NCBI GenBank assembly: GCA_951406725.2
Contig: OX597817.1
Coordinates: 1,612,001-1,676,000 of the forward strand
DNA from: Octopus vulgaris
Lineage: Eukaryota
Length of the DNA stretch: 64,000 nt
Direction: 5' to 3'
In this document: positions 1,493 to 62,769 of the stretch, piece after piece
Numbering within the stretch: position 1 is the stretch's first letter
Layout: each line of letters starts with the position of its first letter
Translations under genes and position numbers: made by a program
The notes under the pieces: model-generated
Database searches by the model: none
Seen by the model: only the letters and a program-made list of their open reading frames with translations
What the model was told of the DNA's origin: nothing

Positions 1493-1830
1493 TTTCCAGT
1501 AATGTTTCTCAGGGCTTTCAATTCACCACAATTGATCAATAGACCAATTGAGTAAATCTATCTATAACGACTGCAGGAAACTGCTGTAAACCAAATTTGC
1601 TCTAATATAAGAATTATATGTAACGACTGTTATTTTAACTTGTCTGTCGTGTGTATGTGTGTGTGTGTGTGTGTGTGTGTACACAGCTTCTGTCTACCTA
1701 ATCCACTCACAAAGCTTTGGTCAGCCCGAGGTTATAGTAGAAGACACTTGCCCAAGGTGTCATACAGTAGGACTGAACCCAGAACCATGTGGTCGGGAAG
1801 CAAGCTTCTTACCACACAGCCACGCCCGTG
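1262..1830 (-). mobile_element. tRNA-derived SINE family A, split copy or two fragments
   Basis: Tail (1262-1490) and head (1686-1830) match the copies at 6701-7121, 16951-17350 and 18191-18576. Confidence 0.8.
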
Positions 1831-2217
1831 CATATATTTAAATAAGTTAAAATGCACGACCTGTCTCATTTCTGAGGAGGAAAAATTGTCGGAGCGCAGA
1901 TGGCTGAACCTTGACTCACTACATCAGCTGAATAGCTAAAGTTTTTCAATGTTTCGAGAGGTCGGCTGTGGCAAACATAATTCTAGATCTAAGGCAAAGC
2001 TCACATAGCGGAACCACAAAATAATAAAACGTATTGTAACTAAAAACCATCGAATTACGGCAGCAAAAGTGAAAGAAGAGTTGAACCACTACGTTGCCAA
2101 CCCTTTATCAACTAAAACTGTTTGTCATGATCTCCCTAAAAATGAATATCATGGCAAAGCTGCAACTGCTCAATCTATCCTGGCTCTCATCAAAATTGAT
2201 TGTGGGGAAAAAAGTGG

Positions 2218-3299
2218 GGATCTTTTCAATTCTGAAGCCAGGACCACAGATCTTTCTACTTAACTAAATAATCTGAAACTTCGTAGGCTGATAGGGTCTA
2301 GCAAAACAAGACACAGGTTGGAACTAGTTTATTTGAGAAAAAATCTATTTTATGACTTTAATCGTAGATTAAAACTGCGAATTTTAACCAATCAGATTGT
2401 TTGTTTTCATGTGTAAAACTTGACTGCATTCTATTAGTGTGACGTAGAAAGCGCTTTTGTGACGTACTAACGTTCGGAAAACTGTAAACAAACACAGAAC
2501 GTAACGGCAGACGAAATACGGCTACGCATTTCGCCCGGCGTGCTAACGTTTCTGCCAGCTCTTTGCTTTTTTAATATTAAATTTCGGCGAAGTTTCTCTT
2601 GTCGTAGCACAAGTTTTCCGTCGATTTCCGTAAAAAACTTTTATTTTTTTACATAAGTAATGAGAGCGAAAGAGACTAAGAGGAAGCGATTTTATGACGA
2701 GGGAAGTTTGTCTTTGAAGTTACCGTCTAGGGGAAGCATTGATGTACATGTGTGTGTTTGTGTGTGTTTGATGGGGTGTGGGAGACAGTATGTTGTGTAA
2801 GTGAAGTGCTTCTGTTAGTGTGTGTGAAGAGACAGAGAGAGTAATGTGTGAAAGAGAGAGATAACTGAAATTTTTTACTCGGTGTATGTGTATATGTATG
2901 TCTGCATGTATGTGTGTGTGTGTATGTATCTATGTATGTATGGCCGATTCATCGTAATTACGATGAATCGGCCATACATACATACACACACACACATACA
3001 TACACACACACACATACTTACACATACATACACACACATACATGTTTACATTTAAGATGTTTAATACGTCACGAAATTGGTGGTCGAGACGGAGTAAATA
3101 AAATAAAGCCGAATGACGGAATATCATTGGTTAAAATTCTAATTATTAAACAACGTTAAACTTAGAAGTTACAATTCCGTTTTCATTCTGGTTTACAATT
3201 AAGTTTACTTTTGACACATTCTACCAGTATACGAAGTTTCAAATTGTTTGGTTCAGTAGGAAAAATTTGAAAAAACTGGCTTCAGAATAGAAAAGATCC
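2218..3299. mobile_element. Non-autonomous TIR element (Merlin- or hAT-like MITE) nested in the Tc1 transposase
   Basis: Termini GGATCTTTTCAATTCTGAAGCCAG ... CTGGCTTCAGAATAGAAAAGATCC, with imperfect complementarity extending ~75 bp. 8-bp TSD AAAAGTGG at 2210-2217 and 3300-3307. Confidence 0.8.
2931..2984. repeat. Perfect 54-bp palindrome
   Basis: tatgtatgtatggccgattcatcgtaa|ttacgatgaatcggccatacatacata with no loop; flanked by TG-rich and CA-rich tracts. Confidence 0.95.
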
Positions 3300-10360: not shown

Positions 10361-11289
10361 TTAGAAATAATAATAAATATTATTATCATTATTATTATTG
10401 TTTTTATTATTACTGCTACTACTGATGTTGATGTTGATTTTGTGAATGGATGTTGCGTACTGTACACTGCCACAATAAAATAATCTTTGCTGCGGACCTG
10501 CCACAATACGACGCGATAATATCTTGAAGTATGAACACACATGCGTGCTTGTATATGAGTAGTTATATGTATATGTGCATATAATATATACATATATCAT
10601 ATGTGAGAAATAATGCGTGGGATGTTTGTATTTGTATGTAATGTGTGTCATGTTTGTGTTACGAATGTTATGACATGTGCACCGGTACTGCCAATATAAC
10701 GTGAAACCTGAAACCAAATTTATAATCCTTGACATTTTATATAAACCAAGCAGAAGTCAAGACAAATATGAAATCAATCATTTGCTACACCTTCTATTTG
10801 ATATTTTATCAAATGCCAAGTTGGTTTTAAAGCAACACGTGAAACCTTAACTCAAAGCTAACCTAACAAGTTTCCTATAAAACTAATGATGATGATGATG
10901 ATGATAACAACAATAATAATAAATAATCATAACTATGATGATAACAATAATAACAACAACATCAATTCATTATAAATATTTAGATTTCTCTATTTGCTAC
11001 AAGGGTAGGAATGCGGAACTTTGCAAAGACGAAATGTATATCGCACGGAACAATTATACATGCGTGCATACGTCATTGGTCAGTTTTAATTCAAGGTTTC
11101 TTGCCAATAGAGAAAGAGCCGGTTTTTAACCCAGATCCAAGGTTCCTTCACTGGAATGTTTTATGTATGTATGTATTATGTATGTACGTACGTGTCAGTG
11201 TGTGCGAAAGACGCCTGTTGTTTCGTCCTGTTATTATTGTTGTTGTTGTTTTTTGTGTTTATATTCGTATTATATTTTGTTTTTTTTGT

Positions 11290-11498
11290 ATTTATGTTCG
11301 TGTGGCATCGTCCGTTTTTTTTGTCCTTGTTTTGTGTGCATTCGATCCTTTTCCCAGGAGATCTGGTGCTCGTGGCTTAGTCGGCTGGGGTTGCGGGGAT
11401 GGTCCGGTTCTTGACTGGGGATTGGAGGCTTCGAGTGACCCGTCCGTGTTTTTGTGTCGTCTGTTTGGGTGTTTTGCGTTCTTGTCCCATTTTGTGTT

Positions 11499-11500
<2 letters not shown>
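11290..11500 (+). mobile_element. Microsatellite-flanked interspersed repeat, strongly A-depleted copy
   Basis: Shares tgacccgtcc..tcgtct..ttgcgtt.ttgt.ccatttt with the reverse complement of 62550-62665; only 15 A in 11291-11490. Confidence 0.6.
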
Positions 11501-11552
<52 letters not shown>

Positions 11553-11769
11553 TATGTATGCATGTGTGTGTTTTTGTGTGTGCGCGTGTGCGTGTGTGCG
11601 TATAAAATGACCATCCTGAAATACAACAATATATATATATATATATATATACATACATACATACATACATACATACATACATACATACATACATACATAC
11701 ATACAAACATATACATATATATATATATAAACACACACCATTTATATCTATCTATTATATATATATATA

Positions 11770-13859: not shown

Positions 13860-15065
13860 GCATACCCAGAACTATGTAGTGTGCAAATATAGCCCTGACG
13901 TCAACTGCAAAACCAGAAATATAGTTTACCGAATAAACTGCATGGATGCTGATTGAAAAAACCGGAAGACTGCATACAGAGGTGAAACAGCGAGAAGTTT
14001 GGCCGAACGCATAAATGGACATTGGAGGGAGTACAGGGATCAAAGACAATCCTCGATAGTCTACCAGCATGCCAAAGAACAGCATGGTGGTGTGCTGAAC
14101 CGGATTAGCATAGAAATCCTGTCTAGACACACGGATGACACATCGCTACGACAGATACGAGAGTCAGTCTTCATAAACGAAACACGACCGGTTTTGAATA
14201 GTAAATACTCTCAATAAGCAAGGCCTTACAAAGACCCATGAATACACATACACATATACACATACACGCACACACACAAGCGGGACATAAACACACACAC
14301 ACACGCACATACACATGCAAAGACAAACAAGGACACAGTCATGCCTTCACGCCCACATGGACACACACACGGGAAACATACATACAGAAGTACACACGTA
14401 CACACAAATACACAGGAACTCACACACATACGAACGCACTCACATGCACACGAGCACACACATACATACATACATACACGAATACACGCGTATGCATACG
14501 CATGCTCGTACTCACGCACTGATAGATATCAATTTATTCAACATTTATCAAACAAAGAAGACAGTTTAACTGTCTTTCAGAGAAACACCAATGAACGTCT
14601 GCGTTTGCGAAGAGAACAAAGAGAAAACGAAAACCGCCATCTTATGCCTATGAAAAATGACACAAGTCAGTAATTAAAAAACACACACAACATAAGGATG
14701 CACACACTTTCTTATGAACAGGCAGACACACTGACATATTCACATACTCATCTCGGACAGATCTCGGAAAAATCCCAACGCTGGAAAATATGTTTAAAGA
14801 AATGGAGGTAGAGAGACGTATCACCGAAGAGATTGCAACAATGCGATGAAATAATTATTTGACGAAACAATAAAAAAAAAAATAATAATTGAAATGATAA
14901 TACGAACAATACTGAATATTTGAACTATTGATTAACTGTTTGAACCAAGTGTTTAATATATGAGTTATAACAATAAATGACTGAACCAGTGCGTGTGTTT
15001 ATTATTACCGGTATAATGCCCTTCCCAATGTTCAATGGTATTTCTTTCAACACATGAATTCATAT
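13860..15065 (+). mobile_element. Penelope-like element 3' remnant (GIY-YIG endonuclease plus 3' region)
   Basis: Frameshifted VCKYSPDVNCKTRNIVYRINC..YRGETARSLAERINGHWREY..YQHAKEQH..LRQIRESVFINETRPVLNSK (13875-14217); ends near (TA)n. Confidence 0.8.
14817..14865 (+). ncRNA. Degenerate hammerhead motif in PLE 3' region
   Basis: tca-CCGAAGA-G-ATTGCA acaa TGCGAT-GAAA-TAATTATT-tgacg; palindromic AAATAATTATTT as stem III; core carries substitutions. Confidence 0.5.
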
Positions 15066-30129: not shown

Positions 30130-30630
30130 TATATGTATGTATGCATGTATGTATGTATGTATGTATGCATGTATGTATGTATGTATGTATGTATGTATGT
30201 ATGTATGTATGTATGTATGTATGTATGTATGTATGTATGTATGTATGTATGTATGTATGTATGTATGTATGTATGTATGTATGTATGTATGTATGTATGC
30301 ATGCATGTATGTATGTATGTATGTATGCATGTATGTATGTATGTATGTATGTATGTATGTATGTATGTATGCATGCATGTATGTATGTATGTATGTATGT
30401 ATGTATGTATGTATGTATGTATGTATGTATGTATGTATGTATGTATGTATGTATGTCATGTATGTATGTATGTATGCATGCATGTATGTATGTATGTATG
30501 TATGTATGTATGTATGTATGTATGTATTTGTATGTATGTATGTATGTATGTATGTATGTATGTATGTATGTATGTATGTATGTATGTATGTATGTATGTA
30601 TGTATGTATGTATGTATGTATGTATGTATG

Positions 30631-49464: not shown

Positions 49465-49669
49465 TGACCGCGTGTGTACAGTTGGCGATTTTTTTCCCCT
49501 CTGTCTTCCCTTCCTTGGATCTTTCCTTCTCCTATGTTTTCGACGAAGAGCTCCGCTCGAAACGTTAAACCCTCCGTCTTCCCTTCTTTCCTGAGCGTCC
49601 AATAATACTATATTTGTTCCACGTCCTCGCGTTGTTGTGTTTTTTTGTTTTTTCTTGTTTGGATTAACT
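49465..49669 (+). mobile_element. 205-bp hammerhead element, copy 3 (HHR at 49536-49570, core mutated to TCGACGA)
   Basis: Same termini and body as copies 1 and 2; (TA)n on both sides. Confidence 0.85.
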
Positions 49670-49670
49670 A

Positions 49671-62245: not shown

Positions 62246-62769
62246 CTTTCTTCTTTTTCTTTTTCGCACACACACATACACACATATACACACACATACA
62301 TACACATAAAGTTCATTCACACAAAGCTCATTGGGGGATATAAATATAATAGCACATGAAACCTAACCAATAGTTCTTGGAATTATTACATACTAATGTA
62401 TGACTAATTGTATTCAACTACAATGAAGAAAAATTTAAACTATTTACTTTATTCGTAAATATTAGTCATTATTATATATATGTGTGTGCGTGTGTGTGTA
62501 TATGCATGTATGTATGCATGAATATAGGTATGTATGTATATATAGAAATAAAAATGGAACAAAAACGCAATAGAGGACATTAAATCATTCGGACAGATAG
62601 ACGATTCAAAGGTGGACAAGAGAAACAACAATTTGAAGGACAGGCGAAAAAGGACGGGTCAGAACATGGTATATATGTATGTATATAAGCATGCACACAC
62701 ACATACACACGCACACATGCACACACACGCACTAAGACACAAACTTACGTACTCGCACTCACACACAAA

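Follow-up and report, generated by a model that had tools for sequence, protein, structure and literature searches.

How does a short stretch of genomic DNA come to be so poor in A on one strand, and can an edited RNA be the cause? Coleoids edit RNA heavily, and the return of an edit to the genome is usually regarded as indirect. The window analysed here, a whole stretch of 64,000 nucleotides from Octopus vulgaris (C4:1612001-1676000 of a 2.8-Gb assembly in 227 contigs), holds at 11291-11490 a segment that an initial annotation had read as the reverse-transcribed, integrated product of a hyper-edited RNA. A recount returned the composition given there—15 A per 200 nt, no AA dinucleotide, and G, C and T as 5' neighbours of 9, 4 and 2 of the surviving As—and placed the G-run motifs pointed out there at 11385-11403 and 11415-11428. 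Across the whole window, the 200-nt tile poorest in A or T starts at 11281, again with 15 A. This poverty arises partly because the repeat family is itself low in A (16% on the sense strand of the full natural unit, 127/799). In 31 unselected copies the same columns hold a mean of 39 A (minimum 31) and 8.8 AA, so that about 24 A are missing from the window copy and the family is, as the annotation expected of a consensus, the A-richer of the two. Other parts of that reading fared less well: the surplus of 5' G among the remaining As is exact as a count and a weak argument taken alone, and the distant relative used for comparison, at 62541-62661 on the reverse strand, exists and is a poor yardstick (64% identity, E about 6e-5). 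We rejected this relative as too distant. Its match in L088, at 86%, is to another repeat. In the contrast drawn between cattttat and cattttgt, the G is an ordinary family letter.

A DNA search with the copy produced 3248 first-look candidates and 44 scored matches, and exact matches to a near-A-free 24-mer close to the right end of the element number 3175. The first 90 of 100 listed 24-mer matches, minus one overlapping locus, formed an unselected sample of 89 loci, from which 65 with at least 100 alignable nt each were retained, chosen blind to editing. The unit is about 850 nt long, non-coding and pyrimidine-rich on the + strand. Among 30 copies anchored mid-element (220 matches to the anchor), 28 reach the right end and left ends vary; 29/30 young loci terminate at unit column 844; and the matches to three different motifs increase toward the right end, from 220 through 1748 to 3175. 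Variable left ends with a fixed right end indicate that left is 5' and that + would be the RNA sense strand. A (TA)n tract usually adjoins the right end. Partial tandems of the pseudo-LTR type also occur (arrays of 1.x to 5.6 units with the 5' unit truncated), as do an inverted arm at the left end (6/89 unselected loci; 3/30 long copies by a scripted rule) and, in some copies, an optional tail of about 45-50 nt.

The hallmarks given in the available text of PMC8557442 and PMC11167929 are 5' truncation, partial tandems, an inverted 5'-truncated arm, an optional tail of 30-40 nt and a (TA)n bias. Our element thus behaves like a non-autonomous derivative of a Penelope-like element (PLE), a membership that its anatomy suggests and does not prove. 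In the loci examined, no in-frame, same-strand ORF for a reverse transcriptase (RT) or GIY-YIG domain, and no autonomous partner, was attached to a copy; RT and GIY-YIG fragments near L007, L012 and L081 were rejected as partners, being nested or on the opposite strand. No hammerhead was found by Rfam match or by a core motif scan of the sense strand of 8 loci, and the other Rfam RNAs returned were merely microsatellite-driven miRNA matches below the gathering score. Separately, unit columns ~45-85 of L009, L012 and L280 contain a motif like a splice donor, GTRAG, with a long pyrimidine tract after it; this arrangement is kept across all three subfamilies and possibly remains from the 5'-UTR intron of a PLE.

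Within the window (Table 1), the copy differs from the column-wise commonest letters of its near subfamily by A>G at 22 of 43 A columns and by 5 other changes. Other yardsticks give 22/42 (nearest copies) and 19/38 (strict columns). Each of the 65 unselected copies has at most 3 A>G, and the background is 45/2010 overall. The count of substitution classes proposed in the annotation therefore came out as it had foreseen, with nearly all changes A>G on one strand. Complex sequence in the window's flanking tiles has no A>G skew: the A>G-rich tiles at 14001, 49601, 56401 and 62401, considered as further edited repeats, proved to be microsatellite artefacts or to have balanced changes, and that at 30401 falls within a TATG array. 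Just 5' of the element, at 11072-11157, lies an unrelated, very high-copy repeat with deep cover in all four public runs compared below. The hairpin region cut by the window's deletion is hit by varied internal deletions elsewhere (L003, L006-L008, L012, L013, L016, L017, L019, L025, L027 and L028, besides 11376-11384 here), in copies chosen by resemblance to the window deletion.

Table 1. Features of the window copy and its surroundings (window positions), with the loci bearing clear A>G clusters
Feature	Position	Strand	Remark
5'-truncated copy	11205..11505	+	3' ~340 nt of the ~850-nt non-coding Penelope-like unit, minus 43 nt
Span of 22 A>G changes	11239..11496	+	Column-wise comparison
Strict-column A>G, left part	11239, 11296, 11336, 11338, 11357, 11360, 11365, 11366, 11374, 11383	+	
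Strict-column A>G, right part	11388-11390, 11396, 11402, 11418, 11435, 11469, 11496	+	
43-nt internal deletion junction	11376..11384	+	5' arm of modest family hairpin lost
(TA)n microsatellite	11506..11559	.	Adjoins the element's fixed 3' end; presumed insertion target
Left flank at truncation point	11156..11204	.	TATG/TG microsatellite-like
Older, separate repeat	62541..62661	-	Distant relative named in the initial annotation; 64% identity
Clustered loci			L001 (window copy), L002, L004, L005, L178, L188, L201, L241, L242
Clustered loci, young subfamily			L236, L277, L278, L281

Pattern searches with one or two Gs fixed were used to find further cases. A copy retrieved through a single A>G site usually proved to be an ordinary point mutant: at least four further A>G accompanied one-site matches in 3/23, 5/22 and 8/21 cases in three sets, two of the 8/21 having equally many other changes, and transversion controls gave 0/15. 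Clear clusters were observed at 13 loci on 10 contigs, the window copy and 12 others, which is a lower bound. Excluded from the 13 are the mildly edited L015, L020-L022, L122, L186, L245 and L279, and we rejected L191 and L200, whose 4-5 A>G are matched by equally many other changes. In seven edited copies, scored on strict columns with selection columns excluded, A>G reached 79/240, against no A>C, one A>T and 6/565 T>C. The one-strand character of the changes shows at the 8-mer GATTAATC, which, being palindromic, presents the same context on both strands and serves as a mirror-strand control: the sense double change was matched 11 times at 9 loci and its mirror, the T>C double change, not once. 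Of the sense matches, 10/11 carry additional A>G within the 25-mer. A second site gave 22 sense and 4 mirror matches, with no clustered T>C. Across the seven copies, 83/462 informative site pairs do not fit one line of descent, and scarcely any further derived change is common to edited copies, which together argue that the clusters are separate events. Edited copies fall on different subfamily backgrounds, and hot sites recur between them. An observation of another kind comes from L151 (C10:26215360-26217360), in which both inverted arms bear the same two A>G-type letters in the element sense, as if the inversion derived from one template.

The annotation had also expected changed sites to be depleted of a 5' G. 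That expectation is borne out by the edited copies pooled and not by the window copy alone, in which 4/12 sites with a 5' G changed versus 18/30 others (p=0.17, or p=0.10 with another yardstick). In a count over nine copies, each with its own yardstick and its own selection columns excluded, A was changed at 44/99 sites after U, 45/97 after A, 12/48 after C and 22/116 after G (p=3e-5); on the 3' side the figures were 39/85 before G, 33/87 before A, 6/26 before C and 45/162 before U (p=0.013 for 3' G). The four young edited loci gave 11/61, 16/44, 3/24 and 6/55 for 5' U, A, C and G. For the 5'-G effect, p was 0.05 in five copies not chosen by resemblance to the window copy, 0.027 at the level of sites, 0.36 when sites were scored as ever edited, and 0.35 once five hot columns were dropped from all copies; under this last rule the bias is absent in L241 and L242 combined. 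The pooled preference, U/A > C > G, is thus ADAR-like, moderate and method-dependent. According to the available text of PMC5625713, every metazoan tested showed 5'-G depletion, with A or G preferred on the 3' side, and octopus hyper-editing is exceptionally high.

We consider it probable, at roughly 0.87, that the sense-strand A>G cluster came about through ADAR deaminating the element's RNA before reverse transcription into a (TA)n site. Sense RNA would pair with a complementary strand; ADAR would convert 15-50% of As within roughly 55-340 nt; a reverse transcriptase of Penelope type, presumably acting in trans, would prime at (TA)n and read inosine as G; and the edited product would become fixed in the germ line. 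The annotation's central proposal, that an edited RNA was reverse-transcribed and integrated, is accordingly one we regard as supported, with ADAR as the enzyme that we infer. The assignment of + to the RNA strand, made from the 5' truncation, the reading of inosine as G and the germ-line timing are likewise inferred.

Evidence on the template comes from a young subfamily (L247-L286), in which copies mostly show 0-1% substitutions against the column letters and often form head-to-tail arrays with no hammerhead; the subfamily is possibly still active. A 35-place pattern characteristic of it has 784 matches, and 92 of the first 100 listed are all-A. Those 100 correspond to 66 loci by hand count, of which 2 bear clusters; at a third, L279, only the hottest site is changed, and this locus is in neither young group. 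The hot sites of the young subfamily fall in unit columns 700-762. A>G occurs at 3/2683 positions in 25 unedited young loci, and at 36/350, with 9 other changes, in the four edited ones. Two of these are arrays: L277 (C1:108238182-108242433; 5.6 units) carries the same 8 A>G in 6/6 units, and L281 (C6:14566800-14569300; 2.8 units) the same 7 A>G in 3/3. Different loci have in common just 2-5 of 10-15 sites, and the rough chance of one independent repeat of an edit set is 1e-6. We also considered whether L236 and the C6 trimer inherited their changes from one edited master, and rejected this on the all-A state of the subfamily in 92 of 100 listed matches.

Identical edits in all units indicate that the change was already in the template before copying, and they bear on the possibility that the changes arose during integration, through RT misincorporation opposite template A, deamination of second-strand DNA, or another enzyme. 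Such a process would likewise affect this strand and accompany retrotransposition; in its favour, too, are the moderate size of the 5'-G bias, the failure to find a duplex partner for the RNA and the ability of ADARs to edit the DNA of DNA:RNA hybrids in vitro (available text of PMC12925331). The identical sets in 6/6 and 3/3 array units nevertheless place the change in the template and argue against polymerase error, the near-zero A>C and A>T exclude A-to-N mutagenesis, and the hot sites recur with a 5' context of U/A > C > G, so that we regard this origin as unlikely.

Less likely still is a change made in place in a resident copy, either by gene conversion from an edited host transcript or by deamination of DNA in an R-loop. 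Arrays could be homogenised after insertion, and units 4 and 6 of L277 have a private C>T in common, which makes some DNA-level duplication possible. However, host transcription would be expected on either element strand and the clusters are sense-only (11 versus 0), the flanking tiles of the window are unskewed, and the 5'-most truncated units bear the same edits as the 3'-most. Since the truncated first unit equals the last, simple expansion after insertion fails as an account unless conversion homogenised the array. The 25-mer edit pattern of L281 has no other occurrence in the assembly, which argues against an edited donor locus in that one case.

Editing of the RNA would also accommodate the arrays in a simple way: several copies were probably made from one edited RNA, by template re-use or from a circular template. 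Such copying is not universal, since in L004 the upstream partial repeat lacks two A>G present in the 3' unit and in L251 two units differ at 5 sites. In L251 (C1:17019889-17022923), the upstream unit is truncated and four of the 5 differing sites recur in the variant L285, a possible sign that copying passed from one RNA template to another.

We looked for the G letters of the window copy in public sequencing runs, as the annotation had proposed for genomic reads, and found them in contigs. Of 7 public runs, the four that were compared, which come from four studies and are all contigs (three guessed to be DNA, one of unknown kind), contain pieces that are unique to the window locus among the loci compared, the longest falling short of the whole insertion. 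In X1, possibly the assembly's own sample, 120 nt (11326-11445) match exactly, taking in 15 strict edited sites as well as the deletion junction. The exact match in X2 covers 66 nt (11380-11445) and 8 edited sites. X3 shows a single difference across 11315-11381 and none across 11425-11488, and X4, labelled organism B, matches 11419-11488 exactly, with 2 strict sites. Exact G-rich pieces in four runs rule out an assembly error. A copy common to several samples implies a germ-line event, apparently inherited rather than somatic, which possibly predates the split of organisms A and B. A G-rich subfamily, an ancestral state or assembly and polishing errors, to which the A/G differences between subfamilies at some columns and the hot sites common to edited copies might have lent weight, now have very little probability and are already largely refuted by the different backgrounds and mosaic, incompatible site sets of the edited copies, the all-A 35-mer of the youngest subfamily (92 of 100 listed matches) and the exact pieces in four runs from four studies.

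ADAR editing of the RNA would call for a duplex, for which the candidates are the inverted 5' arm of some copies, an antisense RNA, or a local hairpin and dimer. In the full-length L004 the changes are concentrated in the 3' ~350 nt (18/71 versus 1/50, p=3e-4), and the inverted arm of a natural copy, L219, is predicted to pair with 225 bases of that end. An inverted arm was found neither at nine edited copies checked nor at four young ones, each at its own locus. The monomer is predicted to fold weakly, as a unit without a long duplex of its own; its predicted pairing had no relation to edit frequency (rho -0.05), and circular folding added no structure. A modest hairpin surrounds the hot sites, and 1/13 of its pairs is compensatory.

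Clustered A>G has been ascribed to ADAR in proviruses of RAV and ALV (PMC12925331) and in the BLV 3' LTR U3 (PMC8025556). As in those systems, to judge from the available text of these papers, the octopus changes lie clustered in a short segment close to the 3' end, reach at most about half of the As there, and appear to have entered DNA through reverse transcription in few of the integrants. Unlike the retroviral proviruses, the octopus element is non-coding, lacks an LTR or viral genes and is (TA)n-targeted; it carries such clusters at 13 loci in one animal genome, and the window copy appears inherited rather than somatic. With the Penelope-like elements of PMC8557442 and PMC11167929 it shares 5' truncation, partial tandems, the inverted arm, the tail and the (TA)n site, and the available text of both reports non-autonomous head-to-tail multimers of Penelope-like derivatives in Chlamys. 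It differs in that no RT or GIY-YIG ORF was found in the loci examined and in its tail of about 45-50 nt, and edited copies are absent from the element descriptions in the available text of PMC8557442 and PMC11167929. Non-LTR retrozymes (PMC7229834; bioRxiv 10.64898/2026.07.22.740005), the nearest known relatives in kind, resemble it as non-coding tandems with an RNA intermediate for which PLE help is suspected, and in the available text of these sources RNA editing is proposed as one source of retrozyme RNA heterogeneity; retrozymes, however, have a type I hammerhead and units of 150-450 nt, whereas the octopus unit, at about 850 nt, is longer and yielded no hammerhead. The identical edits across array units would fit either a circular RNA or template re-use.

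APOBEC editing of endogenous retroelements (available text of PMC2873906) likewise leaves a clustered deaminase footprint in genomic copies, as C>U in cDNA read as G>A, in contrast to the sense-strand A>G of the octopus copies. In human LINE-1, ADAR1 restricts a non-LTR retrotransposon, and octopus ADAR would likewise meet such an RNA; bulk sequencing revealed no editing in 2.5 kb of L1 RNA, whereas edited octopus templates apparently integrated (available text of PMC5224506). Retroviral proviruses are a known setting in which reverse transcription makes ADAR marks permanent. For non-LTR or Penelope-like elements, a search of titles and abstract openings, covering few subscription journals, turned up no account of genomic copies edited by ADAR. 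The literature on DNA editing of retrotransposons may also touch on A>G.

A wider claim, to which we would give even odds, is that a still-active Penelope-like element routinely writes ADAR edits into the germ line, in about 3% of its youngest insertions, and that the edits act as single-molecule barcodes revealing a telomerase-related RT that recopies one RNA into arrays without a hammerhead. If editing of the RNA is the cause, the copies would preserve ADAR activity in the germ line as a dated and heritable record, legible from the assembly alone, RNA edits would be heritable, and editing would be a route to A>G change in repeats. Common array edits would offer a direct test of how Penelope-like tandems form, a subject on which mechanistic work is called for in the available text of PMC8557442. 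The same scan is applicable to any repeat family in any animal genome.

Three further observations concern subfamilies and other repeats. In the L009-type subfamily, about 6 of the separating letters are A/G on the sense strand versus 2-3 T/C; these could be edits fixed in master copies, with CpG decay confounding some. Elsewhere in the window, 13950-14210 holds a GIY-YIG-like 3' coding end resembling one in L081, by resemblance another Penelope-like fragment, and 49560-49670 is a T-rich end on (TA)n that is common to many loci, again a Penelope-like fragment by resemblance.
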